Below, piece by piece: positions 36,694 through 60,501 of a stretch of DNA of 64,000 nt. Under the pieces are notes generated by a model. The model did not search any database, was not told the origin of the DNA, and saw nothing but the letters and a program-made list of their open reading frames with translations. The stretch is from assembly GCF_030013595.1 (NCBI RefSeq), contig NZ_CP122768.1. One strand, 5' to 3'. Position 1 is the stretch's first letter. Each line of letters opens with the position of its first letter. Origin of the DNA: Escherichia coli. GTDB lineage: Bacteria > Pseudomonadota > Gammaproteobacteria > Enterobacterales > Enterobacteriaceae. Position numbers and translations under genes: made by a program.

Positions 36694-37290
36694 TTACACT
36701 TCCTCCGGATTAGCCAGATAACCAGTGGTATCGCCGGTCGGGCGGCTGTTGGCGTTAGGTTTGATAACGATATTGGGTTTTGTGAAATGCGCGCGCGGTA
36801 GTGGCGCGACGGCAGCCAGAGTGCCGTGCTTCTGGCGCAGCTCTTCAATTGGACCGAACTCAAGTGCACGCAGCGGGCAGGATTCGACACATATGGGTTG
36901 TTTCCCCTCGGCGACGCGCGAATAACAACCATCGCACTTCGTCATGTGTCCTTTTTCAGCATTGTACTGTGGCGCGCCGTACGGACAAGCCATGTGGCAG
37001 TAGCGGCAGCCGATACAAACATCTTCATCAACCACCACAAAGCCATCTTCACGCTTATGCATTGCGCCGCTGGGGCAGACTTTTGTACATGCGGGGTCAT
37101 CGCAATGGTTACAGGAGATGGAGAGATAATAAGCGAACACGTTCTGGTGCCAGACGCCGCCAGCATATTCATAAATACGGCGGAAACTGACTTCCGGGCC
37201 AAGATCTTTAAAATCTTTGCACGCCAGTTCGCAGGTTTTACAGCCAGTACAGCGGCTGGAATCGATAAAAAATCCATATTGTGTGGTCAT
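36694..37290 (-). CDS. ynfG: 4Fe-4S ferredoxin-type electron transfer subunit (DmsB paralogue)
   Basis: Four Cys clusters (CTGCKTCELAC, CNHCDDPAC, CIGCRYCHMAC, CDGC...C). Confidence 0.9.
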   Translation of the reverse strand: MTTQYGFFIDSSRCTGCKTCELACKDFKDLGPEVSFRRIYEYAGGVWHQNVFAYYLSISCNHCDDPACTKVCPSGAMHKREDGFVVVDEDVCIGCRYCHMACPYGAPQYNAEKGHMTKCDGCYSRVAEGKQPICVESCPLRALEFGPIEELRQKHGTLAAVAPLPRAHFTKPNIVIKPNANSRPTGDTTGYLANPEEV

Positions 37291-37300
37291 GGGCTACTCC

Positions 37301-39727
37301 TTAAACCTTTTCGATCTGGACAAGATTGCTGTGCGACGGGTTTCCCTTTGCCAGCGGTGAAGGGCGGTGAGAGGTCAGAATATTGATACTGCCGCCGTGA
37401 TCGACCCGGTCACCAAACATATCCGCTTTAAGCCACGCACCTTGCCCGATGGCGGTAACGCCAGGCAGAATACGCGGAGTCACTTTTGCGGCAATCAGCA
37501 TTTCTCCATTATTGTTAAATACCCGCACGGTATCGCCATGACGGATACCGCGTGCCTGAGCATCAATAGGGTTGATCCACACCTCTTGTGGGCAGGCCTG
37601 CTGTAACACATCAATATTGCCGTAGCTGGAGTGGGTACGCGCTTTGTAGTGGAAGCCCGTTAACTGCAGTGGATAGGTTTTCCGCAGGGGATCGTCCCAG
37701 CCATCAAAACCTGGGGTATACGCAGGAAGGGGATGAATAATTTCATCTTTTTTCAATTCCCAGGTATCCGCAATCGTCGCCAGTCGTTCAGAATAAATTT
37801 CGATTTTCCCCGAAGGTGTTTTCAACGGGTTTGCCTGTGGATCTTCACGGAATGCGCGGAAAGCGACGTAGTGTTCTTCCGGGCATTTTTTCTTAAAGAT
37901 CCCGGTCGTTTTCATCTCCTCGTAGTCGGGCATCTCAGGGTTACGTTCCTTCGTTTTCGCATGGAGATATTTGATCCATTCATGCTGACTGCGACCTTCA
38001 GTAAAGGTTTGATAAACGTCTGGTCCTAAGCGTTTGGCAACTTCACTCAGCATCCAGTAGATGGGTTTGCGTTCAAATTTTGCTGAGGTTGCGGGTTGGG
38101 CGAGGATCACATAGCCCATATTCCCGGCAGATTCGTGAGAGATAAGGTCTTCTTGCTCTGTTGGCATCAGGTCGGGCAACAGGATATCGCAATACTTAGC
38201 CGAGGCAGTCATGAAGTGGTCAATGCCAACAATCATCTCGCACTTGCTGTCATCCTGAAGCACCTCATGGGTGTGATTGATGTCGCCATGTTGATTGATC
38301 AATGTGTTACTGGCGTAGCACCATAAAAACTTGATGGGGACATCCAGTTTTTCTTTTCCACGAACACCATCACGGGTCGCGGTCATTTCCGTACCGTGGT
38401 CGATGGCATCTGTCCATGTAAAGACGGAAATCTGCGTTTTAACAGGATTCTCAAGCATCGGGAACCATTCTACCCCCAGATCCCAGCTACCTTCGCGTAC
38501 ACCTGAGTTGCCGCCGTTTATGCCGACGTTACCGGTGAGAACGGAAAGCATGGCAATAGCGCGGGACGTTTGTTCGCCGTTGGAGTGTCGTTGTGGCCCC
38601 CAACCCTGACAAATATAAGCAGGTTTTGCTGAACCGATCTCTCGTGCCAACTGGATAATTTTTTCTGCCGGGATGCTGGTGATTTTTGCTGCCCATTCCG
38701 GCGTTTTAGCTATGCCGTCAGGCCCTTCGCCCAGAATATAGGCTTTATAATGCGCGTTACGTGGTGCGTTGGCGGGCAGCGTTTTTTCATCGTAACCAAC
38801 ACAATATTTGTCGAGAAATGGCTGATCGACCATGTTTTCAGTAATCAGTACCCAGGCAATCGCACAGGCCAGTGCGCCATCGGTGCCTGGGCGAATTGGC
38901 AGCCATTCATCTTCACGCCCGGCAGCAGTGTCGTTATAACGTGGATCGATGACGATCATGCGTGCGTTTGAACGTTCTCGGGCTTGCTCGACGTAGTAAG
39001 TGACACCACCGCCGCTCATCCGGGTTTCTGCCGGGTTATTTCCGAACATAACGACCAGTTTCGTATTGGCTATATCATCCGGGCTGTTGCCATCATTGGC
39101 ACCGAACATATAACTCATTGCGGCACTGATTTGAGCGGTACTGTAGCTGCCATAGCGACTGAGAAAACCACCGCAAGAGTTCATCAGACGGTACGGGACG
39201 TTCGAGTTGGTGATGTTTCCGCCATCTACGCCTGTTCCGTACAGGACATGTACAGCCTCATTGCCGTAATCTTTAAGGATCCGCCGAAGATTATCACTGA
39301 TGGTATCCAGGGCTTCATCCCAACTTATCCGTTCAAATTTACCTTCACCGCGCTTGCCGACGCGCTTCATGGGATATTTCAACCTGTCAGGATGATTCAT
39401 CCGTCGGCGGATAGAGCGCCCGCGTAAACATGCCCGAACCTGATGATTACCGTAGACGTCGTCACCTGTCGTATCAGACTCCACCCAGTACACGGTGTCA
39501 TCTTTCACATGCAAACGTAACAGACAGCGGCTCCCGCAGTTAACGGTGCAGGAACTCCAGACCGCTTTCTCTTCTACCGGTGTCTCTGCCGCTCGGACCA
39601 TTTGGGAAAATGGCAGAGTGAAAGCACTGCTTGCCAGCGCAAGACTGCCAAGTGCGGAGGTTTTCATCAGACTTCTACGGCTGATTTCAGCCTTCATGAG
39701 CGCCTCTGTGGTATGGATTTTCATCAT
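37301..39727 (-). CDS. ynfF: molybdopterin oxidoreductase catalytic subunit (DmsA paralogue), Tat-exported
   Basis: 808 aa, twin-arginine signal (SRRSLMK), Cys motif CTVNCGSRC. Confidence 0.9.
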   Translation of the reverse strand: MMKIHTTEALMKAEISRRSLMKTSALGSLALASSAFTLPFSQMVRAAETPVEEKAVWSSCTVNCGSRCLLRLHVKDDTVYWVESDTTGDDVYGNHQVRACLRGRSIRRRMNHPDRLKYPMKRVGKRGEGKFERISWDEALDTISDNLRRILKDYGNEAVHVLYGTGVDGGNITNSNVPYRLMNSCGGFLSRYGSYSTAQISAAMSYMFGANDGNSPDDIANTKLVVMFGNNPAETRMSGGGVTYYVEQARERSNARMIVIDPRYNDTAAGREDEWLPIRPGTDGALACAIAWVLITENMVDQPFLDKYCVGYDEKTLPANAPRNAHYKAYILGEGPDGIAKTPEWAAKITSIPAEKIIQLAREIGSAKPAYICQGWGPQRHSNGEQTSRAIAMLSVLTGNVGINGGNSGVREGSWDLGVEWFPMLENPVKTQISVFTWTDAIDHGTEMTATRDGVRGKEKLDVPIKFLWCYASNTLINQHGDINHTHEVLQDDSKCEMIVGIDHFMTASAKYCDILLPDLMPTEQEDLISHESAGNMGYVILAQPATSAKFERKPIYWMLSEVAKRLGPDVYQTFTEGRSQHEWIKYLHAKTKERNPEMPDYEEMKTTGIFKKKCPEEHYVAFRAFREDPQANPLKTPSGKIEIYSERLATIADTWELKKDEIIHPLPAYTPGFDGWDDPLRKTYPLQLTGFHYKARTHSSYGNIDVLQQACPQEVWINPIDAQARGIRHGDTVRVFNNNGEMLIAAKVTPRILPGVTAIGQGAWLKADMFGDRVDHGGSINILTSHRPSPLAKGNPSHSNLVQIEKV

Positions 39728-39784
39728 TACTCACTTATTGCTTTTCAAACAAAATGTCATGCCAGAATTTATGGTTGTAGTGGG

Positions 39785-40811
39785 TTATATTTTTTCGATC
39801 TCGACCAGATTAGTGTGCTGCGGGTTTCCCTTCGCCAGTGGTGAAGGGCGCAGAGTGGTTAGCGTATTCACACAGCCGCCATGGTCGATTTTATCGCCAG
39901 ACATATTGGCCTCGTGCCAGGCTCCCTGGCCCATAGCGCTAACCCCAGGGAGAATGCGTGGTGTTACTTTGGCTGGTAGCCGAACTTCGCCACGATGGTT
40001 AAACACCCGCACCATATCGCCGTTGGCAATCCCACGTTTCTGTGCATCTATAGGGTTGATCCACACCTCCTGACGGCAGGCTTCCTTCAGGACATCAATA
40101 TTGCCGTAGGTCGAGTGGGTACGGGATTTGTAATGGAAACCAAACAGTTGCAGTGGGAAGGTTCTACGTTCAGGGGAGTCCCAGCCTTCAAAGGTTGAGG
40201 CATAAACTGGCAGTGGGCTTATCACTTCATCTTTTTCCAGTTCCCAGGTACGGGCAATTTCCGCCAGCTTGCTGGAATAAATTTCAATCTTACCGGAAGG
40301 CGTTTTAAGTGGATTTGCCTCGGGGTCGTCACGAAATGCTTTGTAGGCGACAAAATGACCATTGGGATCTTTACGCTTATAGATACCCATTTTTTTCAGT
40401 TCGTCGTAAGACGGTAACGCCGGATCTTTGGCAAGCATTTTGGCGTACAGATGTTGTAACCATTGTTCCTGCGTGCGACCTTCTGTGAACTTTTGATAGA
40501 CGTCAGGTCCAAGACGTTTCGCGACTTCACTCAGGATCCAGTAAATCGGTTTGCGTTCGAATTTTTCGCTGGTGACTGGCTGAAGGAAAATGAGATATCC
40601 CATGTTACCTGCGTAGTCGTTAGGAATAATATCTTCCTGCTCAACGGTCATCAGGTCTGGCAGCAGAATGTCGGCATATTTTGCCGATGAGGTCATAAAG
40701 TTTTCGATGACCACAATCATTTCGCATTTCGATTCGTCCTGCAGAATTTCATGCGTTTTGTTGATGTCAGAATGCTGATTAACCAGGGTATTTCCCGCGT
40801 AGTTCCAGATG
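39785..40811 (-). pseudogene. ynfE: ynfE 3' fragment (codons from about IWNYAGNTL to the C-terminus), separated from its 5' part by a 9.4-kb insertion
   Basis: Translation aligns residue-by-residue with the C-terminal half of YnfF; homology begins exactly at the 11-bp repeat 40801-40811; the track ORF 39785..40951 is a chimera with insert-derived N-terminus. Confidence 0.85.
40801..40811 (+). repeat. left copy of 11-bp direct repeat AGTTCCAGATG (att core or target-site duplication)
   Basis: Identical 11-mer at 50242-50252; joining the flanks restores the in-frame ynfE sequence ...VPIKFIWNYAGNTL... Confidence 0.8.
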
Positions 40812-40876
40812 GACTCCACTGTCAGACGGATGGACGGACTTGAAGTAGTTGACTCAACGCTACTTAAGGTCCTGAT

Positions 40877-42485
40877 ATGACTGACATTAACTATGATAAT
40901 ACTGTATATCCATCCAGCTCTTTCTCTGGGTCTCCCTATCTGTATGGGCAAGTCTACACCTCAAGTCCTGACACAAGGCTGACACAAATCAATCTACTCA
41001 GCGTAGCTAAGCCTCAGTTAGTCCGTAGAGCCAATGGTCGATATACTATCCGCTTCAGACTCAAGGGACAGACCACACCGTTTCTTTCAGTATCGACCCG
41101 AAGCACAGACAGGAGAGTAGCCACAATGCGTCAGAGAGAGCTTGCAGCCACAGCTAAGGCCTTCATGTTGGATAGGCCTGAAGTCTCACTACAGGAGCTT
41201 ACAGAGCATCTCCGGTCTATGGCTGAGCAGTTCCTGACAGACGCTAGTGACGATTACTGGAATGGACTTGAGGTCGCTACTTTGGTGGACGAGAAGTCCA
41301 ACCTGAAGGAGCTAGCCGCTACGCAAGCCTTGAGTCTGGACCAGCAGAAGGGCATAAGGTTAGCGCTTGAAGTCCTGACCGCAGCACAGCAGAGGGTAGA
41401 TACTGGTGATACGTCCAGTCTAATCAAGCTGATTGGTGGTGGCGTAAGCCAGCTTACTGATGGAGATGACAATAACCTTACTAATAACTCAACTATATGC
41501 GACTCTACGTTGATTCTGAGGAACGAGCAGGGGGTCAGCCCGCAAGTATTCACGAGAGAGCGCCAACCATCTGTAGTTTTTTCAAGCCTAGTGTCCTCAC
41601 TGCTGGCTGAGAAGGTCCAGACCCTGAAGTCCTCCAGCTACAAGGACCTGTCGTCCTCACTGAATACCGTCTCTCGGTTTCTGCCTGAAGATATGGACCT
41701 GATGTCCCGCTCTGAGTGGCTGGCAGTGAGGGACGCTATGCTGGCTGCTGAGGTGAGACCATCGACAATCAACAAGCTGCTGACCAAAGCGAAGATGTGT
41801 CTCGATTATGGCCTGATGAATGGGCAACTTGAGGGCCGCAACCCTATTGAACGGATGAAGCTGACCAAGGATACCGACTCCAAGCGCAGAGCGTTCACAG
41901 ACGAGGAGCTGGAGAGACTTCTGGTCCGTGTTGAGGCTGAGTATCAGTTCACACGACACACGGCTCACACGACCTCTGAGGCCCGTAGATGGGCGTCTCT
42001 GGTGTCTGTGGTCACTGGCGCGAGGTCTGCTGAGGTCTGCCACCTGACTAAACGTGACGTTGTAACCTTGGACAATGGACTGGTCTGTATCGACATCAAT
42101 GAAGATGGGGACGGGAAGTCTGTGAAGAACAAACATTCAGTCCGACTTGTGCCGTTAACCGATGGGGCCTGTGGTTTCAGCCTGAAGTCCTTCCTCAAAT
42201 GGGTAGACACTCAGCCTGCTGATGGTCCCCTCTTTGGTATGACTCCGAGTGCCTACTCTAGTTGGTTTAACTCTAGGGTCCTGACTGAGGCCCTAGGAGA
42301 CGCTGAGAACGTTTCTCCACAGTCTGAGACATTGGCTGGCGACCCGAATGAAAGAGCGTGGAGTCAATCTGGTGGACGCTCAAGGCATCTTAGGTCACAG
42401 CAGTCAGTCCATTACGTATGACCTGTACGGGAAAGGACACGCTGTTGGTAGGCTGGCTGAGGTGCTGAAGACAGCTTTACTTTAA
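40877..42485 (+). pseudogene. tyrosine recombinase/integrase with apparent 1-nt frameshift upstream of box II
   Basis: ORF 40877-42421 contains box I (VVTGARSAEVCHLTKRDV) but ends out of frame; the HSLRHWLATRM...LGHSSQSITYDLYGKGH catalytic His-Arg-His-Tyr region is in another frame (42297-42485). True start is probably downstream of 40877, since arm-type repeats lie at 40968-40987. Confidence 0.6.
40968..40987 (+). repeat. two 11-bp-spaced direct repeats CTGACACAA (putative integrase arm-type sites, left arm)
   Basis: CTGACACAAGG and CTGACACAAAT in tandem; same motif recurs three times at the right end. Confidence 0.5.
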
Positions 42486-42562
42486 GTAGGAAGACCCAAG
42501 GTGGAGACCATATACGGCTTGATGGTTGAGACCTTGGGTCACTGAAGTCTGACTGAAGTTAG

Positions 42563-42603
42563 GGAGGGTGATAATAATCATAATCCCTCCTGACTATAGG
42601 CCC
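42563..42603 (+). promoter_or_regulatory. hairpin (GGAGGG-16 nt-CCCTCC) followed by T7-class promoter-like motif CTGACTATAGGCCC
   Basis: Direct reading of sequence; TATAGG core shared with motifs at 42801-43474. Confidence 0.35.
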
Positions 42604-42644
42604 ACTGGTTCGCCTTCGGCTGTCCGACTCTAAGTCTGTCTGTG

Positions 42645-42776
42645 GTCTTATTTAAACTGGTTCCCTAACTCAGGTCCTCCAACTTGGTGTCTTATTTAAA
42701 CTGGTTCCCTAACTCAGGTCCTCCAACTTGGTGTCTTATTTAAACTGGTTCCCTAACTCAGGCCCCTCCAAATTTC
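42645..42776 (+). repeat. three tandem copies of a 44-bp repeat (GTCTTATTTAAACTGGTTCCCTAACTCAGGTCCTCCAACTTGGT)
   Basis: Units start at 42645, 42689 and 42733; first two identical, third diverges in its last 14 nt. Confidence 0.85.
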
Positions 42777-42800
42777 GTTGTCTGTCAGCGACTTAAATAT

Positions 42801-42855
42801 CCCCTCACCTTAGAAGAGTTTAGGGTTCAGACCCTTAACTATCACCTTAGGAGAG
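42801..42855 (+). promoter_or_regulatory. pair of single-subunit phage RNAP promoter-like motifs (CCCCTCACCTTAGAAGAG and AACTATCACCTTAGGAGAG)
   Basis: Resemble SP6/T3-class promoters (…CACTATAGAAGAG / …CCCTCACTAAAGGGAGA); located just upstream of the 166-aa ORF. Confidence 0.35.
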
Positions 42856-42901
42856 ACGGGCCGTCCTCCACCCAATCAAAACCTTAAGAGGAGGACCATA
42901 C

Positions 42902-43402
42902 ATGGCTATTAAAATTCAGTGCTACACCGAGTCCGACAATGCGGCTTTCTTCGGTGACGATTCCGACCTCCAGCACCAGCTACCAGCACCGACATATGAC
43001 GAACCTAAGGCCCGCACAGGTAAGCCTCCTGTGGTCATCGACAACCGGGCTGTCCGTGCGTGGCTGATTGAGACTGGGTGTCTCTCCTATACGCAGCTTG
43101 TTGAGGCGTACCCGTGGGCTGACGATGTGTTCACAGGACTCTCACGGGCTACCAGTGGCGCTGTCGGTGCTGGACTCCCGGTATCTAAGGCGTACCTGTT
43201 CTCTGCCTTATATGGCACCAACGACATCTTCTCCCGTAACACAGCCAAATCCTACGCTGACATCACTGGGCGTTCACCGTCTCCTCGCTACCTGCGCCAC
43301 GTCAATAGCGTGCTTCAGGCTACGGCTGTGAATCTGGCTAAGGTTCTGAAGGACCGAGGGGATTTCACATGGTGGGATTACAACGATCAGTGCCTGTCCT
43401 GA
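42902..43402 (+). CDS. hypothetical protein (166 aa)
   Basis: ORF with GAGGAGG Shine-Dalgarno 8 nt upstream; no recognisable motifs. Confidence 0.55.
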   Translation: MAIKIQCYTESDNAAFFGDDSDLQHQLPAPTYDEPKARTGKPPVVIDNRAVRAWLIETGCLSYTQLVEAYPWADDVFTGLSRATSGAVGAGLPVSKAYLFSALYGTNDIFSRNTAKSYADITGRSPSPRYLRHVNSVLQATAVNLAKVLKDRGDFTWWDYNDQCLS

Positions 43403-43426
43403 GAGCCGCGCCAGCTCTGGGCTGGA

Positions 43427-43474
43427 ATACCCCCTCACTATAGGGACACCCCCTAAACTATCACTATAGGGGGG
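43427..43474 (+). promoter_or_regulatory. pair of T3/T7-class promoter-like motifs (CCCCCTCACTATAGGGACA and AACTATCACTATAGGGGGGA)
   Basis: First motif matches the T3 promoter core CCCTCACTAAAGGGA at 14 of 15 positions and the T7 core TCACTATAGGGA exactly; no RNAP gene in the element. Confidence 0.45.
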
Positions 43475-43620
43475 ACCAACCTTGCCTCTGCTTCTGATGC
43501 GTCAGAACACGCGAGGTCCTCCCGACATTAAGTATTCTCCTAAGTAATCAAGGCCCGTGACCGCCTCTGACAGACCTCCTGTATCGACCTCCAGCTCGTT
43601 AGCGTTCTTTAGTCGTCTCG

Positions 43621-43628
43621 GTTAGTAG
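43621..43628 (+). repeat. 8-bp target-site duplication GTTAGTAG (left) of IS66-family copy 1
   Basis: Identical octamer at 46329-46336 immediately outside the IS ends. Confidence 0.8.
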
Positions 43629-43712
43629 GTAACCGGCTCATTTAAACCGTCTGGTCTGTTTCCTCCGGCTCTACAAAAATAATGTCCATCATTTTTTAAT
43701 GGACACTATCGT

Positions 43713-44360
43713 ATGAAACACCGGACCTGGATCACTGAAGCTTTACGTCTTCACTTTGAAGAACATTTACCCCGGGTTGTGGCCGGGCGTCGCCTGGGTG
43801 TACCAAAATCAACAGTTTGTAGTATGTTCGTGCGCTTTCGGAGAGCTGGCCTTTCGTGGCCTTTGCCCGCAGGCATGTCGGAGCAGGAACTTGATGCCTG
43901 CCTTTACGGACAATTTTCCACGGTACCAGTCGTACGTCCTGAAAGCACCGTTATATCCGAAGCCCCCGTGGTAAAAAAACGTCCCCGGCGGCCCAACTTC
44001 CCTTATGAGTTTAAAATCGCCTTAGTGGAGCAGTCACTGCAGCCCGGAGCCTGTGTGGCGCAGATCGCCCGGGAAAACGGAATCAACGATAACCTGCTCT
44101 TCAACTGGCGCCATCAATACCGGAAAGGTGGCCTGCTGCCTTCCGGAAAAAATATGCCGGCACTGCTTCCCGTGACGTTAACGCCGGAGCCGGATAATAA
44201 AATCCCGGCCCCCGCACAGGAACCAGAGCAGATAAATACACCGTCCGACAGTCTGTGTTGTGAGCTGGTTCTGCCGGCCGGAACTCTCAGGCTTAAAGGT
44301 AAACTGACGCCGGCGTTATTACAGACACTTATCCGCGAAATAAAAGGGAGCAGCCACTGA
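43713..44360 (+). CDS. IS66-family accessory protein (orf1, HTH)
   Basis: 215 aa first ORF of the IS. Confidence 0.8.
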   Translation: MKHRTWITEALRLHFEEHLPRVVAGRRLGVPKSTVCSMFVRFRRAGLSWPLPAGMSEQELDACLYGQFSTVPVVRPESTVISEAPVVKKRPRRPNFPYEFKIALVEQSLQPGACVAQIARENGINDNLLFNWRHQYRKGGLLPSGKNMPALLPVTLTPEPDNKIPAPAQEPEQINTPSDSLCCELVLPAGTLRLKGKLTPALLQTLIREIKGSSH

Positions 44361-44707
44361 TGATATCTCTCCCTGCAGGTTCGCGTATCTGGCTGGTTGC
44401 AGGTATCACCGATATGCGAAATGGCTTTAACGGCCTGGCATCAAAAGTTCAGAACGTCCTGAAGGATGACCCGTTCTCCGGACACCTGTTCATCTTCCGC
44501 GGACGCCGGGGTGACCAGATAAAAGTGTTGTGGGCTGACAGTGACGGACTGTGCCTCTTCACCAAACGCCTGGAGCGGGGCCGCTTCGTCTGGCCAGTCA
44601 CCCGTGACGGCAAGGTGCACCTTACTCCGGCTCAGTTATCCATGCTTCTTGAAGGTATCAACTGGAAGCACCCGAAACGAACGGAACGCGCTGGAATCCG
44701 CATATAA
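44360..44707 (+). CDS. IS66-family Orf2 (TnpB-like)
   Basis: 115 aa MISLPAGSRIWLVAGITDMRNGFNGLA..., typical IS66 orf2; start overlaps orf1 stop. Confidence 0.85.
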   Translation: MISLPAGSRIWLVAGITDMRNGFNGLASKVQNVLKDDPFSGHLFIFRGRRGDQIKVLWADSDGLCLFTKRLERGRFVWPVTRDGKVHLTPAQLSMLLEGINWKHPKRTERAGIRI

Positions 44708-44726
44708 CCCGTTGTAAAGTGAGGAT

Positions 44727-46298
44727 ATGGACACCTCACTTGCTCATGAGAACGCCCGCCTGCGGGCACTGTTGCAGACGCAACAGGACACCATCCGCCA
44801 GATGGCTGAATACAACCGCCTGCTCTCACAGCGGGTGGCGGCTTATGCTTCCGAAATCAACCGGCTGAAGGCGCTGGTTGCGAAACTGCAACGTATGCAG
44901 TTCGGTAAAAGCTCAGAAAAACTTCGTGCAAAAACCGAACGGCAGATACAGGAAGCACAGGAGCGAATCAGCGCACTTCAGGAAGAAATGGCGGAAACGC
45001 TGGGTGAGCAATATGACCCGGTACTGCCATCCGCCCTGCGCCAGTCTTCAGCCCGTAAACCGTTACCGGCCTCACTTCCCCGTGAAACCCGGGTTATCCG
45101 GCCGGAAGAGGAATGCTGTCCTGCCTGTGGTGGTGAACTCAGTTCTCTGGGATGTGATGTGTCAGAGCAACTGGAGCTTATCAGCAGCGCCTTTAAGGTT
45201 ATCGAAACACAACGTCCGAAACAGGCCTGTTGCCGGTGCGACCATATCGTACAGGCACCAGTACCTTCAAAACCCATTGCACGCAGTTATGCCGGAGCGG
45301 GGCTTCTGGCCCATGTTGTCACCGGGAAATATGCAGACCATCTGCCGTTATACCGCCAGTCAGAAATATACCGTCGTCAGGGAGTGGAGCTGAGCCGTGC
45401 CACACTGGGGCGCTGGACAGGTGCTGTTGCTGAACTGCTGGAGCCGCTGTATGACGTCCTGCGCCAGTATGTGCTGATGCCCGGTAAAGTCCATGCTGAT
45501 GATATCCCCGTCCCGGTCCAGGAGCCGGGCAGCGGTAAAACCCGGACAGCCCGGCTGTGGGTCTACGTCCGTGATGACCGTAACGCCGGTTCACAGATGC
45601 CCCCGGCGGTCTGGTTCGCGTACAGTCCGGACCGGAAAGGTATCCATCCACAAAATCACCTGGCCGGTTACAGCGGTGTGCTTCAGGCCGATGCTTACGG
45701 TGGTTACCGGGCGTTATACGAATCCGGCAGAATAACGGAAGCCGCGTGTATGGCTCATGCCCGGAGAAAAATCCACGATGTGCATGCAAGAGCGCCCACC
45801 TACATCACCACGGAAGCCCTGCAGCGTATCGGTGAACTGTATGCCATCGAGGCAGAGGTCCGGGGCTGTTCAGCAGAACAGCGTCTGGCGGCAAGAAAAG
45901 CCAGAGCCGCGCCACTGATGCAGTCACTGTATGACTGGATACAGCAACAGATGAAAACACTGTCGCGTCACTCAGATACGGCAAAAGCGTTCGCATACCT
46001 GCTGAAACAGTGGGATGCACTGAACGTGTACTGCAGTAATGGCTGGGTGGAAATCGACAACAACATCGCAGAGAACGCCTTACGGGGAGTGGCCGTAGGC
46101 CGGAAAAACTGGATGTTCGCGGGTTCCGACAGCGGTGGTGAACATGCGGCGGTGTTGTACTCGCTGATCGGCACATGCCGTCTGAACAATGTGGAGCCAG
46201 AAAAGTGGCTGCGTTACGTCATTGAACATATCCAGGACTGGCCGGCAAACCGGGTACGCGATCTGTTGCCCTGGAAAGTTGATCTGAGCTCTCAGTAA
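44727..46298 (+). CDS. IS66-family transposase (orf3)
   Basis: 523 aa with N-terminal leucine-zipper-like region, CxxC...CxxC zinc finger and DDE region. Confidence 0.85.
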
Positions 46299-46328
46299 AT
46301 ATCAATACGGTTCTGACGAGTCGCTTAC

Positions 46329-46336
46329 GTTAGTAG
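46329..46336 (+). repeat. 8-bp target-site duplication GTTAGTAG (right) of IS66-family copy 1
   Basis: Matches 43621-43628. Confidence 0.8.
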
Positions 46337-46582
46337 CTCGTCTACTCACTACATTGGCTTAAGTCTATCACCGCTCACCATCTGGAGTCCTTACAGCTCG
46401 TCCTGACATGCGGTCTCACCTTATATGCACATGGAGAACATGGCCACTCCAGACCAACACTAATCAACATTAACCCTATTCACTTTCGTTAAGCATTTTT
46501 TGGTGGGTCCGTTTGGATGCATTGAATAGGTGCGGACTCCACGTGGAGACAGAAAGTGCTTTACTAAAGGAGCATCCTTTAT

Positions 46583-46972
46583 ATGACTATTAAATCCATC
46601 GTTATCAACGGTAAGACCATCCTGTCTACACCTAACGCCATCAATGAGGGTGTCTGGTTCGACATGCTTGAGGTCCATCAAGCTGCTGGCTTGCCTGCTA
46701 ACAAGACGTTCTCACAGTGGCGCAGCCGACAGTCTCGTGCATTAGAAGAGGCTGGAGAGGTGTCGTTTGACAGTGTACAGAAGACCCTGTGTGGCAGCTT
46801 TGTGGCAGTGCTGGCCTACCTTATGTGGGCGGACCTTACTCTCTGGCTGGCGGTGGTTCGTTACGTTGCGTCTGAGACTATCGGCGTCCTGCCTGACCGC
46901 TTCAAGTCTATCGACGGTGATAACCCCGAGTTAGAAATGTCAGAGGATAACAGCGAGTGGGAGGACTTCTAA
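46583..46972 (+). CDS. KilA-N domain protein (129 aa)
   Basis: N-terminal pattern (INGKTI...NEGVWFDMLEV...GLPANKTFSQW) and hydrophobic WxxxLxxxL segment typical of KilA-N/APSES DNA-binding domains. Confidence 0.5.
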   Translation: MTIKSIVINGKTILSTPNAINEGVWFDMLEVHQAAGLPANKTFSQWRSRQSRALEEAGEVSFDSVQKTLCGSFVAVLAYLMWADLTLWLAVVRYVASETIGVLPDRFKSIDGDNPELEMSEDNSEWEDF

Positions 46973-46973
46973 G

Positions 46974-47714
46974 ATGACCATGAGCCAGCTTGAAGCATTA
47001 CCTATCGTCATCGAGGGTCATTCATTCATCTGCAACGACCAGCGCATGTGGAACCTGAACGAGATTCACCGAGTGTTAGGTCTTCCAGCAAGCAAGATGC
47101 CGTCTGAGTGGAATAACAAGATTCGCACACAACTTGACCGCTCCGGAAATTTCCGGACCGTGAATGGTGACGGCGGTGGTACATGGGCGACCGAGGCTGG
47201 GACCGTGGCTTATGCTATGTGGGTCTCTACAGATTTCTACCTGATGGTCATCAATGCTTTCATCTTTATGCGTAACGACGCAATCGTCCGAGAGCGTGTA
47301 GCGGTCAAACAGGCTGACGAGGCTAACGCTAACCTCTCCATCGCAGCACCTAAGGCAGACATCTTTGACGGTCGTCTGACCAATGGTGGCTCTGTTCCGT
47401 GGAACTGGGCGTGTAAATCTTTGGGTCTTGCCCCGATGAAACTGAAAGAGGGCTTGAAGCGCTCCGGTAAGTTCGTCCAGAAGTGGAACCCTGACAGTTA
47501 CGCCGACGAGCTTCGACCTCAGGAGAAGGCGTTCAGTATTGGACTATTCGTCACTAAGTCAGTCATGGGTAAAGACACATGGCAGGTGACAGCTAAAGGC
47601 TACGCATGGATGCAGGGGAACGCCCAGAAGTGGAGAGAGCTAATAGCTGATGGTGACCGCTTAAAGGCTGCTGAGCGTCGAGCACAGAAGCGTCTTAACC
47701 GTGGAGGTAAGTAG
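46974..47714 (+). CDS. KilA-N domain protein with C-terminal extension (246 aa)
   Basis: Paralogous to upstream ORF (IEGHSFICNDQRMWNLNEIHRVLGLPASKMPSEW... GTWATEAGTVAYAMWVSTDFYLMV). Confidence 0.5.
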   Translation: MTMSQLEALPIVIEGHSFICNDQRMWNLNEIHRVLGLPASKMPSEWNNKIRTQLDRSGNFRTVNGDGGGTWATEAGTVAYAMWVSTDFYLMVINAFIFMRNDAIVRERVAVKQADEANANLSIAAPKADIFDGRLTNGGSVPWNWACKSLGLAPMKLKEGLKRSGKFVQKWNPDSYADELRPQEKAFSIGLFVTKSVMGKDTWQVTAKGYAWMQGNAQKWRELIADGDRLKAAERRAQKRLNRGGK

Positions 47715-47716
47715 TC

Positions 47717-47941
47717 ATGGCTATGATTGACCCTCGTACACCTATCGGCAAAGCGACCCTTCGTTACCGTGGTCTGCCTACACGTCATCTGCTGTCCCTG
47801 CTGAGACTTGGAGTCGAAGACCCCGAACGCCCGTACTACAGTCGAGACGAGCTAATAGCTATGTTGGTGGACCGTGATTTAGACAATCAGTTACGCCGAG
47901 CCTTTGCGAAGTCTAGCGCAGCTAGGGAACTGGAGTCCTGA
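47717..47941 (+). CDS. hypothetical protein (74 aa)
   Basis: ORF tightly coupled to upstream gene (3-nt gap). Confidence 0.4.
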   Translation: MAMIDPRTPIGKATLRYRGLPTRHLLSLLRLGVEDPERPYYSRDELIAMLVDRDLDNQLRRAFAKSSAARELES

Positions 47942-48146
47942 ACCTTATGGGGCAGAAAAACCGCCGCATAAACCTATCGTCTGCTGACCGAAGTTTCGAC
48001 GCATTGAGCCAGACGGAAAAGTTTTCCTGCTGGTAAACCACCTTAATTTAAACACCTTTTGAGAATGACCGATGCGGGGAGACCCGTAGGCATAACTGTG
48101 TCTGCGATACCGATAGTTCTCACCTTCTCAATAGGAGTACTACCTT

Positions 48147-48638
48147 ATGTTATTCAACAACAACGACTGGAAACTATCAGTCACCGACATCAATCCCTAT
48201 GAAAATACTGTGAGTCTGGACGGTCAGTCCTATCCGCTGTCTCTGGCGATTAAGACCCTGATTCCGGGCTACCTGTCAGGCTTACCGTCCACCAGCCGCG
48301 AGGCGATGGAGTTACTGGAAGCTCTGGCTGAAGCTGGCGTGTCCATTGGCAACTTCTTCAGTAATGACCTGATGACCGCCTATGGTCGCCGCCAGCAGAA
48401 CAAGCGAGCCGAAGCTGAGCGTATTGCTAAAGAGCAGCGCATTCAGGCTGAGCGTATGCGTGAAGAGAACATGACTGATGCAGAGTGGCAGAAAGAGCTA
48501 CAGCGCCGTGAACAGGTCAAAGCTGAACGCCGGACCTATGGTGAGCACCTCCGCAGTGCTACCCATTCCGCTGGGCGCTCCCGTGCTTCTATGGTCGCTG
48601 ACATTGAGTCCACGGACAACTGGATGGACAGCCTCTAA
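48147..48638 (+). CDS. hypothetical coiled-coil protein (163 aa)
   Basis: C-terminal half highly charged and heptad-like (RRQQNKRAEAERIAKEQRIQAERMREENMTDAEWQKELQRREQVKAERR). Confidence 0.5.
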   Translation: MLFNNNDWKLSVTDINPYENTVSLDGQSYPLSLAIKTLIPGYLSGLPSTSREAMELLEALAEAGVSIGNFFSNDLMTAYGRRQQNKRAEAERIAKEQRIQAERMREENMTDAEWQKELQRREQVKAERRTYGEHLRSATHSAGRSRASMVADIESTDNWMDSL

Positions 48639-48704
48639 GACACAGACACACAAGTGGTCCTGACCTGATGTCGGGACCCACAGTATCCAAACTAATTTAG
48701 GAGA

Positions 48705-49700
48705 TTGATTATTATGACGATTAAAGACGCTTTCCAGTTCGGCATTGAGCCAGTACGTATCAGCGACACCGACAACATTCAGATTAACGAAGGTTTGCCA
48801 ACTAACGCAGACCCGCAGGTCTATGCCCTCCAGTTAGCTAAGACGGTTAAGGCTATGCTGAACGGTGTACTTAAAGACGCTCAAGAGAACATCCCGTTCC
48901 CTGTAGAAGTCCTGCCGACCCGCAATAGCCTGCCTACTCCAATCATTGCTCACACTCTGGCTGATCGCTCTGTGGTCGTTCCTGTCCGTGGTGGTAAGCG
49001 ACCTGAAGTCGTGACCGTTCCGTCTGGACAAGAAATCGTGGTCGAACCAATCGAGCAGGCTATTCTCATCTCTGAGCAGACCAAGCTCTGGGACGCCAAG
49101 TCATCCACCGGATTCACTCAGGGCACACTTCAGCAGGACGCTATGAACATCTGTGAGAATGTGGTCCGTACCATCAACGCTCGCATGGTCGACGTTCTGG
49201 AGTCCTCCAAACTGTTGAAGACCGTAGAGCTGCCAGTCCTGACTGGAAGCCTGACCACTAAGGCAGACGCTATCATGGACGCTCTGTTTGAGAACACCGA
49301 GTCCTCTTTCGGCTCTGAAGTGTCTGATTACGGCATCATCGCCCATGAGTCCCAACTGAAAGCGCTGTCCCGTCTGGCAGCTAAACAGGGCTTCTCTGGT
49401 GGAGACGCTATCGTGGATATGCTGGGTACCGACATCGCCTATTACAACGGTGAAGACAAGGGTGTATTCATGCTGGCTAAACGCTTCACGGCCCTGAGCT
49501 TCGGCTGCTTCCGTCACGACGGTGAGAATATTACGGTCGTCCTTTCACGTGATGGCGACTCTCAGTCCCACGACTTGGAAATCCTCGGTAAAGTGTTCGT
49601 TGTCGCTGAAGCTGCTACGACCATCAAGATGGGCACTGGCTCAGCTACTGCCGTCCTGCCTGTAGTCAAACGCCTGAAGTTCACCAAGACCGAAGCGTAA
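48705..49700 (+). CDS. hypothetical protein (331 aa), possible structural/morphogenetic protein
   Basis: Largest non-integrase ORF of the element; follows the coiled-coil ORF; AGGAG Shine-Dalgarno upstream; no motif I can assign. Confidence 0.5.
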   Translation: MIIMTIKDAFQFGIEPVRISDTDNIQINEGLPTNADPQVYALQLAKTVKAMLNGVLKDAQENIPFPVEVLPTRNSLPTPIIAHTLADRSVVVPVRGGKRPEVVTVPSGQEIVVEPIEQAILISEQTKLWDAKSSTGFTQGTLQQDAMNICENVVRTINARMVDVLESSKLLKTVELPVLTGSLTTKADAIMDALFENTESSFGSEVSDYGIIAHESQLKALSRLAAKQGFSGGDAIVDMLGTDIAYYNGEDKGVFMLAKRFTALSFGCFRHDGENITVVLSRDGDSQSHDLEILGKVFVVAEAATTIKMGTGSATAVLPVVKRLKFTKTEA

Positions 49701-49844
49701 GACCAATGGGTAAGAGGTAAGTCTGGACTGAATATCAGCAGGACTTCAGGTGGTGGCCTGTCACTGTGATTAACTAACTACGGTCTGGACCAATGGTCTG
49801 GGCCTTATTACTGGTATGGTAGTATACAGGCGAAGGAGGACCCA

Positions 49845-50000
49845 ATGTCTATGACTTCCGCAGACCTAAGGTCCCTCCTGACTCTGGTCTATAAACTCGT
49901 GTTCCTCTCTGTGGGTCTCTACATGGTTCTCTCTGGTCGACTCGGTGTGGATGTGTTCGACACTCTGTCTAAGGCTGTGGGTGGACTTCTAGGTCCTTAG
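49845..50000 (+). CDS. small single-pass membrane protein (51 aa)
   Basis: ATG with AGGAGGA Shine-Dalgarno; MSMTSADLRSLLTLVYKLVFLSVGLYMVLSGRLGVDVFDTLSKAVGGLLGP; below ORF-track cutoff. Confidence 0.4.
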   Translation: MSMTSADLRSLLTLVYKLVFLSVGLYMVLSGRLGVDVFDTLSKAVGGLLGP

Positions 50001-50153
50001 GTTTGGACTCACAGTGGGACCGATGATTTCTGACAGAAAAATGTGAATGACCATCTAATACATTAAGCCAGCAGACTTCCCCCCATAGTCCCGCCTCAAG
50101 TCCAGACCGAGGCCACCGGGGGTCCTGACCAGCCGTCTAGACATCCCGTCTAA

Positions 50154-50186
50154 TGACACAAGTCTGGCACAAAGCCTGACACAAAG
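50154..50186 (+). repeat. three 11-bp-spaced direct repeats TGACACAAG / TGGCACAAAG / TGACACAAAG (putative arm-type sites, right arm)
   Basis: Same motif and orientation as 40968-40987 at the opposite end of the element. Confidence 0.5.
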
Positions 50187-50241
50187 TCCTTGACTCAATG
50201 CAGGACCTCAGGCCTACTAAGGGTCCGCTTCAAGTCCTTGA

Positions 50242-50252
50242 AGTTCCAGATG
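50242..50252 (+). repeat. right copy of 11-bp direct repeat AGTTCCAGATG
   Basis: Identical to 40801-40811. Confidence 0.8.
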
Positions 50253-51652
50253 AACTTAATGGGCACATCCAGTTTATCTTTGCCGCGGACGCCGTCGCGG
50301 ATTGCCGTCATTTGCGGGCCATGATCGATAGCATCCGTCCAGCTGAAGCAGGAGATTGACGTTTTGACCGGATTATCCAGCACCGGTAGGCGTTCTATGG
50401 TAATGGTATAGGTCGATTCACGCGCGCCACTATTCCCGCCGCTGATGCCGACATTGCCCGTCAAAATAGGCAACATAGCAATAGCGCGTGCGGTCAGCTC
50501 ACCGTTTGCCTGGCGTTGCGGCCCCCAGCCCTGGCAGATATAAGCGGGTTTTGCTGTGCCAATTTCACGCGCCAGTTTGATGATACGGTCCACCGGGATA
50601 CCGGTAATTTGCGAAGCCCACTGCGGCGTTTTCGCTGTTTTATCGTCACCTTCACCAAGAATATAGGCTTTATAGTGACCATTTTTTGGTGCATCTGCGG
50701 GTAAGGTTTTTTCGTCATAGCCGACGCAGTATTTATCAAGAAAAGGTTGATCAACGAGATTTTCGTTAATCAATACCCAGGCAATACCCGCAACCAGCGC
50801 GGCATCGGTGCCCGGGCGAATAGGAAGCCATTCGTCTTCACGACCGGCAGCCGTATCGGTATATCGCGGATCGATAACAATCATTTTTGCGTTCGATTTC
50901 TCGCGCGCTTTTTCAAGAAGATAAGTGATGCCACCACCGCTCATGCGGGTTTCTGCCGGGTTGTTACCAAACATCACGACCAGCTTGCTGTTTTCAATAT
51001 CCGTGGTGCTGTTGCCATCATTACTGCCGTAGGTGTAGGGCATGGCACAGGAAATTTGCGCGGTGCTGTAGGAGCCATACTGGTTGAGTGAGCCGCCGTA
51101 GCAGTTCATCAGGCGTTTGACCGCCGAGGCGGATGGCGAAGAGCGGGTCATATTGCCGCCAACAATCCCCGAAGAGTACTGAATATATACAGCCTCATTG
51201 TCATATTGTTCGACGGTTTTTTTCAGGCTACTGGCGATAGTATCCAGGGCTTCATCCCAGCTAATCCGTTCGAATTTGCCTTCGCCGCGTTTGCCCACGC
51301 GTTTCATTGGGTAATTCAAGCGGTCGGGATGATTAATACGCCGACGGATGGAGCGACCGCGCAAACAGGCGCGTACTTGATGATTGCCATACTCATCGCT
51401 GCCGGTGTTGTCAGTTTCCACCCAGGTCACTTCATTATCTTTAACATGCAGACGAAGTGCACAGCGGCTACCACAGTTGACGGAACAGGCACCCCAGACC
51501 ACTTTCTCGCTGGCCTGTTGTACTGCTGCCGCTGCACTGCGCAGGGTGAACGGTAAAGAAAAACCGCCTGCAGCCAGCGCCAGAGAACCTATCGCGGTAG
51601 ATTTAACGAGTGTTCTGCGGCTGATGCCCACCATTTGTTCATTTTTGGACAT
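50242..51652 (-). pseudogene. ynfE: ynfE 5' fragment (Tat signal and N-terminal about 465 codons)
   Basis: MSKNEQMVGISRRTLVKSTAIGSLALAAGG twin-arginine leader; homology to YnfF ends at ...LDVPIKFIWN where the insert begins. Confidence 0.85.
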
Positions 51653-57012: not shown

Positions 57013-57801
57013 TTAATTTTTCATTGCTTCGTTATGGGGCATGGTTGGGGCAAACTCGCTTAACTGTGTATTTAACAAAGCTACCTGTGCATTATTGTTT
57101 TCAGACATCCATTTTCCGTATACCTGAAATACCATTTGCGCATCTGCATGGCCCATCTGGTTTGCTATAAATGCCGGGTTAGCACCAGCTGTCAGCGACC
57201 AGCAGGCATAAGTATGTCTCGACTGATATGATTTTCGATGGCGGAGTCCGGCACGTTTTATCGCTGCGTCCCACATCTGCCTTATTGAGTCAACGGTAAA
57301 ATGGTCACCATAATTTTTTACTCTCGCTGACACTTCAGGTTGAAAAACAAAGGTGCATTTATGTTTTTCTGTTCTGCCATACTCTCTGAGGTGAACATCA
57401 ATGATATGCTCTTTGCTCAGTCTCGTTAATGTCATCTGACTCCGGAGAGCGTCGATTGCTGGCTTAATAAGATGAATGACCCGATTGGTTCCCGCCTGTG
57501 TTTTTGGTACCGTGAAACGGTCTTTTGCTAAATTTCTCCTGATCATCATTGTTCCATTTTTCAGATCTATGTCCTCCCATCCAAGTGCACACAGCTCACC
57601 AGGGCGAACGCCAGTATAAACAGAAACACACCATAAATTTTTGGCTTGCTGATTTCTGCACGCATCGATAAGACGGATGAATTCCTCCCGCGAAAGAGGA
57701 TCCGGAATGGTTCTTGATTCCTTTAATGGCGAGATCCCCTTAAACGGGTTATCTGCCAGGTAACCGTTATCAACACCAAACTGGAACACGGCGTTAAGAT
57801 T
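57013..57801 (-). pseudogene. lambdoid prophage tyrosine integrase, 3' (catalytic) fragment, separated from 5' part by IS66 copy 2
   Basis: Contains integrase motifs (RPGELCALGWEDID, HIIDVHLREYGRTEK, SRHTYACWSLTAG, HADAQMVFQVYGKW); reading continues in frame from 60502-61016 across the 8-bp TSD. Confidence 0.8.
57794..57801 (+). repeat. 8-bp target-site duplication TTAAGATT of IS66-family copy 2
   Basis: Identical octamer at 60502-60509 outside the other IS end. Confidence 0.8.
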
Positions 57802-57831
57802 GTAAGCGACTCGTCAGAACCGTATTGATAT

Positions 57832-59403
57832 TTACTGAGAGCTCAGATCAACTTTCCAGGGCAACAGATCGCGTACCCGGTTTGCCGGCCAGTCCTGGAT
57901 ATGTTCAATGACGTAACGCAGCCACTTTTCTGGCTCCACATTGTTCAGACGGCATGTGCCGATCAGCGAGTACAACACCGCCGCATGTTCACCACCGCTG
58001 TCGGAACCCGCGAACATCCAGTTTTTCCGGCCTACGGCCACTCCCCGTAAGGCGTTCTCTGCGATGTTGTTGTCGATTTCCACCCAGCCATTACTGCAGT
58101 ACACGTTCAGTGCATCCCACTGTTTCAGCAGGTATGCGAACGCTTTTGCCGTATCTGAGTGACGCGACAGTGTTTTCATCTGTTGCTGTATCCAGTCATA
58201 CAGTGACTGCATCAGTGGCGCGGCTCTGGCTTTTCTTGCCGCCAGACGCTGTTCTGCTGAACAGCCCCGGACCTCTGCCTCGATGGCATACAGTTCACCG
58301 ATACGCTGCAGGGCTTCCGTGGTGATGTAGGTGGGCGCTCTTGCATGCACATCGTGGATTTTTCTCCGGGCATGAGCCATACACGCGGCTTCCGTTATTC
58401 TGCCGGATTCGTATAACGCCCGGTAACCACCGTAAGCATCGGCCTGAAGCACACCGCTGTAACCGGCCAGGTGATTTTGTGGATGGATACCTTTCCGGTC
58501 CGGACTGTACGCGAACCAGACCGCCGGGGGCATCTGTGAACCGGCGTTACGGTCATCACGGACGTAGACCCACAGCCGGGCTGTCCGGGTTTTACCGCTG
58601 CCCGGCTCCTGGACCGGGACGGGGATATCATCAGCATGGACTTTACCGGGCATCAGCACATACTGGCGCAGGACGTCATACAGCGGCTCCAGCAGTTCAG
58701 CAACAGCACCTGTCCAGCGCCCCAGTGTGGCACGGCTCAGCTCCACTCCCTGACGACGGTATATTTCTGACTGGCGGTATAACGGCAGATGGTCTGCATA
58801 TTTCCCGGTGACAACATGGGCCAGAAGCCCCGCTCCGGCATAACTGCGTGCAATGGGTTTTGAAGGTACTGGTGCCTGTACGATATGGTCGCACCGGCAA
58901 CAGGCCTGTTTCGGACGTTGTGTTTCGATAACCTTAAAGGCGCTGCTGATAAGCTCCAGTTGCTCTGACACATCACATCCCAGAGAACTGAGTTCACCAC
59001 CACAGGCAGGACAGCATTCCTCTTCCGGCCGGATAACCCGGGTTTCACGGGGAAGTGAGGCCGGTAACGGTTTACGGGCTGAAGACTGGCGCAGGGCGGA
59101 TGGCAGTACCGGGTCATATTGCTCACCCAGCGTTTCCGCCATTTCTTCCTGAAGTGCGCTGATTCGCTCCTGTGCTTCCTGTATCTGCCGTTCGGTTTTT
59201 GCACGAAGTTTTTCTGAGCTTTTACCGAACTGCATACGTTGCAGTTTCGCAACCAGCGCCTTCAGCCGGTTGATTTCGGAAGCATAAGCCGCCACCCGCT
59301 GTGAGAGCAGGCGGTTGTATTCAGCCATCTGGCGGATGGTGTCCTGTTGCGTCTGCAACAGTGCCCGCAGGCGGGCGTTCTCATGAGCAAGTGAGGTGTC
59401 CAT
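57832..59403 (-). CDS. IS66-family transposase (orf3)
   Basis: 523 aa product identical to 44727-46298. Confidence 0.85.
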
Positions 59404-59422
59404 ATCCTCACTTTACAACGGG

Positions 59423-59770
59423 TTATATGCGGATTCCAGCGCGTTCCGTTCGTTTCGGGTGCTTCCAGTTGATACCTTCAAGAAGCATGGATAACTGAGC
59501 CGGAGTAAGGTGCACCTTGCCGTCACGGGTGACTGGCCAGACGAAGCGGCCCCGCTCCAGGCGTTTGGTGAAGAGGCACAGTCCGTCACTGTCAGCCCAC
59601 AACACTTTTATCTGGTCACCCCGGCGTCCGCGGAAGATGAACAGGTGTCCGGAGAACGGGTCATCCTTCAGGACGTTCTGAACTTTTGATGCCAGGCCGT
59701 TAAAGCCATTTCGCATATCGGTGATACCTGCAACCAGCCAGATACGCGAACCTGCAGGGAGAGATATCAT
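59423..59770 (-). CDS. IS66-family Orf2 (TnpB-like)
   Basis: 115 aa identical to copy 1. Confidence 0.85.
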   Translation of the reverse strand: MISLPAGSRIWLVAGITDMRNGFNGLASKVQNVLKDDPFSGHLFIFRGRRGDQIKVLWADSDGLCLFTKRLERGRFVWPVTRDGKVHLTPAQLSMLLEGINWKHPKRTERAGIRI

Positions 59771-60417
59771 CAGTGGCTGCTCCCTTTTATTTCGCGGATA
59801 AGTGTCTGTAATAACGCCGGCGTCAGTTTACCTTTAAGCCTGAGAGTTCCGGCCGGCAGAACCAGCTCACAACACAGACTGTCGGACGGTGTATTTATCT
59901 GCTCTGGTTCCTGTGCGGGGGCCGGGATTTTATTATCCGGCTCCGGCGTTAACGTCACGGGAAGCAGTGCCGGCATATTTTTTCCGGAAGGCAGCAGGCC
60001 ACCTTTCCGGTATTGATGGCGCCAGTTGAAGAGCAGGTTATCGTTGATTCCGTTTTCCCGGGCGATCTGCGCCACACAGGCTCCGGGCTGCAGTGACTGC
60101 TCCACTAAGGCGATTTTAAACTCATAAGGGAAGTTGGGCCGCCGGGGACGTTTTTTTACCACGGGGGCTTCGGATATAACGGTGCTTTCAGGACGTACGA
60201 CTGGTACCGTGGAAAATTGTCCGTAAAGGCAGGCATCAAGTTCCTGCTCCGACATGCCTGCGGGCAAAGGCCACGAAAGGCCAGCTCTCCGAAAGCGCAC
60301 GAACATACTACAAACTGTTGATTTTGGTACACCCAGGCGACGCCCGGCCACAACCCGGGGTAAATGTTCTTCAAAGTGAAGACGTAAAGCTTCAGTGATC
60401 CAGGTCCGGTGTTTCAT
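59770..60417 (-). CDS. IS66-family accessory protein (orf1)
   Basis: 215 aa identical to copy 1. Confidence 0.8.
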   Translation of the reverse strand: MKHRTWITEALRLHFEEHLPRVVAGRRLGVPKSTVCSMFVRFRRAGLSWPLPAGMSEQELDACLYGQFSTVPVVRPESTVISEAPVVKKRPRRPNFPYEFKIALVEQSLQPGACVAQIARENGINDNLLFNWRHQYRKGGLLPSGKNMPALLPVTLTPEPDNKIPAPAQEPEQINTPSDSLCCELVLPAGTLRLKGKLTPALLQTLIREIKGSSH

Positions 60418-60501
60418 ACGATAGTGTCCATTAAAAAATGATGGACATTATTTTTGTAGAGCCGGAGGAAACAGACCAGACGGTTTAAATGAGCCGGTTA
60501 C

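Follow-up and report, generated by a model that had tools for sequence, protein, structure and literature searches.

The integrase gene (int) of a genomic island inserted in ynfE is broken by a frameshift between box I and box II of its catalytic region, and the cause is most probably a real mutation, the deletion of one TC unit, to which we assign a probability of about 0.78. The gene lies in the window, the whole stretch of Escherichia coli DNA that was analysed (64 kb of contig NZ_CP122768.1), and the frameshift is real in the sequence of this window as assembled. The parts of the gene that carry this finding are the following:

40877–42421, plus strand: truncated integrase ORF of 514 aa, authentic over residues 1–480 and closed by a premature stop after 34 out-of-frame residues (ORF list and tblastn).
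42313–42318, plus strand: the lesion, a TC run cut to TTCTCC, in which one TC unit (2 nt) is missing compared to every comparator (allele alignments).
42315–42485, plus strand: stranded 3′ end of int, in the +1 frame, with H482-x-x-R485, H508, Y518 and the normal stop (tblastn against L001).

When the intact homologue of E. coli EC100 (L001, 536 aa) was used as the tblastn query, its residues 1–480 were found in frame +2 of the window and its residues 481–536 in frame +3 at 42315–42482, with 56 identities out of 56 (E = 3e-29), so that the C-terminal match in another frame is, judged by this value, far beyond chance. The stranded 56 residues read LHSLRHW…LGHSS…YDLYGKGH…LL before the stop. The frame to which they belong is open from 42297, just 3′ of a TAG at 42294–42296, to the TAA at 42483–42485, encoding ...LHSLRHWLATRMKERGVNLVDAQGILGHSSQSITYDLYGKGHAVGRLAEVLKTALL and the stop, and it overlaps the frame of 40877 by approximately 20 nt (42297–42318). 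With the TC unit restored, the product has 536 aa. A preliminary description of this DNA had already proposed an integrase frameshifted between box I and box II, with an ORF from 40877 that carries the box I arginine region and ends at 42421 after an unrelated tail, and with the catalytic HSLRHW segment in another frame (42297–42485, now found to be 100% identical to the intact homologue over 56 aa); the split between frames +2 and +3 bears all this out, and the break falls inside the interval 42305–42320 where it had been expected. In contrast, the proposals that one restored nucleotide would join the frames and that the context is a homopolymer had to be corrected. Passing from the frame of 40877 to that of 42297 takes two bases added or one removed, and the alignments show two bases missing, whereas the site is a (TC)n dinucleotide run with no homopolymer longer than 3.

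The DNA alignment with three intact genes (L001–L003) placed the two absent columns after 42317. The closest allele for that part of int, from LR-64-1 (L006), is identical to the window over 165 nt except for the gap, with GTTTCTCTCCACAG where the window has GTTTCTCCACAG, and other intact alleles have GTCTCTCTCC or GTCTCTCTAC at the TC site. Compared to 22 other alleles, taken from genomes and metagenomes, the only private columns of the window across the 1.6-kb int were the two missing bases. The deletion event appears to be recent, because it is the sole base difference in int that is absent from the intact alleles. The longest single-base run near the lesion is TTT at 42312, and loss of a TC unit from the short (TC)3 run by replication slippage is the most likely origin. 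No length differences were detected at the TC site among the 22 other alleles, which showed base substitutions only, and the tract has just 2–4 TC units, so the long tract and length polymorphism of a phase-variable contingency locus are not seen here. The gene is also a mosaic (window 40877–42600), identical to the EC100 allele from approximately 40900 to 42000, the same as in LR-64-1, with the 2-nt gap as the one exception, at approximately 42200–42400, where 26 positions differ from EC100, and back to the EC100 allele after 42397, which argues for recombination between island variants.

The restored 536-aa protein was matched by the phage integrase profile of Pfam (PF00589) over residues 354–518 (E = 5.1e-14) and by PHROG 1 ‘integrase’ (E = 2.7e-41), and alignment to PF00589 and to XerA of Pyrococcus abyssi (PDB 4a8e) located its catalytic residues. 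The box I arginine is R383, box II is H482-x-x-R485, the second histidine is H508 and the nucleophile is Y518. The encoded ORF departs from the authentic sequence after S480, keeping R383 and the lysine hairpin and leaving H482, R485, H508 and Y518 out of frame. The catalytic-domain profile is matched on the restored sequence, whereas the series R...K...H-x-x-R...H/W...Y does not occur in one polypeptide in the ORF as encoded. The first ATG of the stranded frame (42348) lies downstream of H-x-x-R, and therefore no second polypeptide would supply the missing residues. As read from its sequence, the gene cannot encode a catalytically complete recombinase; it is by descent a member of the tyrosine recombinases and by state, as its frames indicate, a pseudogene. 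Among phage integrases, the closest matches come from temperate Pseudomonas phages such as vB_PsyP_3MF5, with 34% identity over 84% of the query.

A protein search with the restored integrase gave 1194 relatives, the best 120 of which (522–547 aa, with 99–100% coverage of the restored query, from E. coli, Shigella, E. albertii, Enterobacter and Citrobacter) all read through the site in one frame as VSLHSLRHW, or in one of them ISLHSLRHW. At the DNA level, the 165-nt int stretch around the break had matches in 138 of 5426 complete E. coli genomes, and among these 138 the match was two bases longer than the query in all 60 genomes listed; the contig scan found the intact spelling of the site in 20 metagenome contigs. 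The integrase was uninterrupted in 23 of 26 comparator loci and the three exceptions were broken at other positions, two of them in contigs of 0.8–1.6x coverage. In E. coli OkiPb01717 (L005, locus 925–2506), an integrase of the same family is split by an independent 1-nt insertion, at approximately the equivalent of window 41537, and two ISCro1 copies as well as an IS3-family element are present in the island of this strain.

Two ways of reading the layout as functional have to be weighed against these homologues. A programmed (+1 or −2) ribosomal frameshift, or transcriptional slippage, could yield a full-length integrase from the two frames, which overlap by just those 20 nt or so, and a +1 shift within the overlap would produce an almost normal protein that is short of one residue. 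Nevertheless, the two-frame layout is not conserved, given the single frame in the best 120 homologues, the 60 listed genomes and the 20 metagenome contigs, and the overlap holds no slippery heptamer, in-frame stop or long homopolymer. Moreover, no Rfam match was obtained for the site, the downstream 82 nt fold no better than shuffled sequences (z = 0.17) and the codons at the site vary synonymously (GTC/GTT, CTC/CTA), as they do in ordinary coding sequence. Programmed recoding, which the preliminary description had kept as an alternative, is thus extremely improbable, with one frame in all homologues compared and no recoding signal. That the two frames are separate genes, one for a DNA-binding protein and the other for a small 45-aa peptide, is scarcely credible: the ATG at 42348 does open a 45-aa ORF, but no homologue is organised in this way, both parts being fused in every intact relative, and H-x-x-R precedes that ATG and is not part of any ORF that has a start codon. 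Both readings were rejected on the single-frame homologues.

An error in the consensus deserves more weight and is still unlikely. According to this explanation, the 536-aa integrase is intact in the strain and the consensus lost two bases in sequencing or assembly, which would agree with the deletion being the sole private difference in int and with its presence in no other assembly; the sequence 3′ of the break is perfectly conserved, and that nothing else has decayed would be expected of an artefact just as much as of a very recent mutation. Against it, the site is a (TC)3 dinucleotide run and not a homopolymer, two-base losses are not the usual platform error, and we take the lesion site to be neither a Dam nor a Dcm methylation motif. 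The surroundings also argue against an artefact, as no window-specific frame-breaking indel was found over approximately 51.7 kb compared to a 99.9% relative, the window holds an intact rstB ORF at the sole homopolymer difference, and the lengths of the remaining island ORFs and of the two ISCro1 copies are those known from other strains. The closest backbone relatives are the pig isolates HCP5S3_I2 and LCP30S3_I5 (99.9% identity), and over the approximately 51.7 kb shared with such relatives just two indels were detected, one in a G-run and the other an in-frame 21-nt deletion; the window is therefore without sign of indel-prone sequencing. The exact 514-aa product was absent from a collection of 15 billion proteins and from the gene index, and scans of metagenome contigs and of species-representative genomes with a degenerate DNA pattern of the deletion allele had 0 matches each, with the intact control matching 20 metagenome contigs; these scans show only that the allele is rare and are uninformative on whether it is real or an error. 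A real deletion of the TC unit is thus the preferred explanation.

With respect to the two indels themselves, the G-run lies in rstB at window 17245 (compared to NZ_CM149870.1), where the window has G6 and an intact ORF (16119–17420) and the closest relative has G5, with rstB annotated as frameshifted. The 21-nt deletion is found in ynfG (36694–37290, minus strand) at window 37154, between the short direct repeats CCAGACGCC / CCAGTCGCC; it removes DWQEDNG, giving a protein of 198 aa versus 205 aa in the closest relatives, without loss of any cysteine ligand. This deletion may reflect relaxed selection on the operon after ynfE was split.

The boundaries of the island were obtained by comparison with K-12, whose ynfD-ynfE-ynfF region aligns to window 38280–40815 and resumes at 50242, with 15 bp common to both junctions. 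The island thus covers approximately 40816–50241 (9.4 kb, or approximately 6.7 kb without ISCro1) and interrupts ynfE near codon 470 of 808. Its parts, apart from int, and the two fragments of ynfE are:

39785–40815, minus strand: ynfE 3′ fragment, codons ~470–808 (K-12 alignment; annotated in homologous loci as a partial molybdopterin dinucleotide-binding protein).
40801–40815, plus strand: attL core, AGTTCCAGATG exact, the 15-bp overlap with attB having 1 mismatch (junction comparison).
40968–40987, plus strand: two CTGACACAA motifs 11 bp apart (40968 and 40979), in the 5′ part of int, candidate arm-type sites.
42493–42540, plus strand: inverted repeat with 19-bp arms, just 3′ of the int stop (repeat search).
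42645–42771, plus strand: 44-bp tandem repeat, 2.9 copies, with a copy number that varies between strains (repeat search).
42902–43402, plus strand: island ORF of 166 aa with no family match, of the same length as WP_001548580.1.
43629–46328, plus strand: ISCro1 (IS66 family: tnpA, tnpB, transposase), 2700 bp, intergenic, with the 8-bp duplication GTTAGTAG.
46583–46972, plus strand: island ORF of 129 aa with no family match.
46974–47714, plus strand: KilA-N / anti-repressor-like protein of 246 aa (PHROG 129/63 matches; KilA-N domain protein in L004).
48147–48638, plus strand: island ORF of 163 aa with no family match.
48705–49700, plus strand: island ORF of 331 aa with no significant family match.
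50153–50184, plus strand: three (C/A)TG(A/G)CACAA motifs 11–12 bp apart (50153, 50164 and 50176), approximately 60–90 bp inside attR, candidate arm-type sites.
50242–50256, plus strand: attR core AGTTCCAGATGAACT (junction comparison).
50242–51652, minus strand: ynfE 5′ fragment, codons 1–~470, continued by 15 unrelated island codons to a stop at 50195 (K-12 alignment).

An 11-bp exact direct repeat, AGTTCCAGATG, is present at 40801 and 50242, the attB junction of the restored ynfE would read ...GTAGTTCCAGATGAACTTAATGG..., and the distance from attL inwards to the start of int is 62 bp. Of the four exact copies of CTGACACAA in the 64-kb window, three fall within the clusters at the island ends, the total motif count of the window being not above chance; the clustering inside both ends is suggestive, and these may be arm-type integrase sites. 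The 44-bp repeat, of which OkiPb01717 has one copy fewer, might be iteron-like or contain binding sites for the integrase or a regulator. Regarding the cargo, no anti-phage defence or satellite function was detected with PADLOC, PHROGs and NCBIfam beyond the KilA-N/Ant-like protein of 246 aa, and a Pfam search of the 331-aa ORF revealed no further cargo function. The position of int at the ynfE site was the same in the first 30 genomes listed, of the 138 with matches, and in all six loci examined. Metagenome contigs of 6.6–6.9 kb were considered as possible excised circles and discarded, as they showed no terminal overlap and no attP junction and their ends lie approximately 45–55 bp outside the att cores, in ynfE. 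Seven such contigs (L011, L015, L019, L023, L025, L027 and L029) hold the whole island plus approximately 45–55 bp of ynfE on each side; judged by these ends, they are assembly breaks at a polymorphic insertion, the pattern expected where filled and empty ynfE sites coexist in the community that was sampled.

Compared to IS-free islands, ISCro1 is inserted in the spacer between the 166-aa and 129-aa ORFs without interrupting any ORF, and apart from int the island is undamaged in its ORFs and in both att cores. As it hits neither an ORF nor an att core, ISCro1 is not by itself evidence of immobilisation, and the earlier suggestion that the IS66 insertion contributed to it is not sustained by what is a simple intergenic insertion with its 8-bp duplication. 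A second ISCro1 is present in the window in inverted orientation (57802–60501), with 1 mismatch in 2703 aligned nt compared to the first and with the TSD TTAAGATT. This copy splits the integrase of the lambdoid (Rac/Qin-like) prophage that adjoins rspB (57013–57789 and 60498–61016), which is intact (426 aa) in the 99.9% relatives, so that with the int frameshift both integrases of this 20-kb stretch are disabled, by different means. The inverted copies bracket 11.5 kb, comprising the right half of the island, the ynfE 5′ half and ynfD through rspB, and this segment could undergo inversion by homologous recombination or move as a composite unit. A past inversion or deletion between the copies was rejected, as the genes are ordered as in IS-free strains and a separate 8-bp duplication flanks each copy.

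The consequences proposed for the lesion are these. Slippage would have removed one TC from the (TC)3 run at 42313–42318, sending translation off frame after Ser480 to a stop 34 codons further on. The predicted product would keep the N-terminal and core-binding parts, R383 and the lysine hairpin and would be devoid of H482-x-x-R485, H508 and Y518. With its catalytic H-x-x-R, histidine and tyrosine missing, such a product should therefore be unable to cleave or rejoin DNA, and the island in turn unable to excise by its own enzyme. From these missing residues we infer that the island cannot excise by itself, despite its intact attL and attR, and that it is probably stuck in this strain. The immobilisation put forward in the preliminary description can thus be retained by way of integrase loss and not by way of the IS66 insertion. 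For excision, an integrase of this family would have to be supplied intact in trans, or the gene would have to revert by regain of a TC; a further copy of the integrase in the rest of the genome, beyond the window, could provide the activity in trans. ynfE would remain split and inactive, and ynfFGH-dmsD would remain separated from the ynfE promoter.

In the closest relatives the site is empty and ynfE is intact, which means that the island was recently gained here or lost from theirs, and either history fits the lack of further decay. A more elaborate reading, in line with the proposal of ‘regulated gene integrity’, is that the ynfE island switches the ynfEFGH selenate/tellurate reductase operon reversibly by excision, a scheme in which the TC run of int would be a low-frequency slippage point that locks the switch off in some lineages and is revertible by TC regain, and in which the truncated DNA-binding protein might be a regulator or a dominant-negative factor at the att sites; we regard it as speculative and very unlikely. 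In practice, 40877–42485 should be annotated as a frameshifted integrase pseudogene with a 2-nt deletion and a restored product of 536 aa, within an island that would be non-autonomous in this strain, with ynfE permanently split unless an integrase is supplied in trans. Beyond annotation the import is small. The strain has a modest value for the published excision-regulation idea as a natural integrase-null control, for which the 99.9%-identical pig isolates with an empty ynfE site represent the matched ‘excised’ state.

When compared with known systems, the gene differs from prfB, dnaX and the IS3 transposases in that the conserved two-frame arrangement of these is absent among the integrase homologues, and in that a slippery sequence with a stimulatory element was not found at 42297–42318. 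The restored protein is like the PF00589 integrases and XerA in the alignment of R, H-x-x-R, H and Y, but it has an unusually long N-terminal region, with approximately 230–350 aa without family match, and as encoded here the four catalytic residues are out of frame. The cryptic or defective prophages and islands of E. coli include integrase pseudogenes and decayed elements fixed in the chromosome, and integrase inactivation by a small indel is the commonest way in which such elements get stranded. The present case likewise consists of a single inactivating int lesion that strands an otherwise intact element, although at a very early stage of decay, with att sites and cargo ORFs intact and the rest of int unchanged.

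The insertion site itself has been described. ynfE is among 19 new candidate cases of ‘regulated gene integrity’, with islands mapped by TIGER as Eco892.7.ynfE and Sfl13.8.ynfE, and the supplement describes a 7-kb E. coli and an 8-kb Shigella flexneri island that disrupt the ynfE molybdopterin domain (Mageeney et al., 2020, NAR, PMC7192596). The island of the window shares this target, also interrupting the molybdopterin domain in mid-ynfE (attB at about codon 470 of 808) without restoring it, and has a similar size, 7–8 kb there and approximately 6.7 kb here without the IS; it has att-core direct repeats (11 bp exact, 15 bp near-exact) with int at one end, and a tyrosine integrase found in E. 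coli and Shigella, the likeness to the catalogued islands resting on target, position and size. In contrast to them, its integrase is frameshifted and ISCro1 has been inserted, and any reactivation of ynfE by excision would be disabled. This is therefore ordinary mobile-element decay, a frameshifted integrase pseudogene in a catalogued island family, of a kind that is already known.
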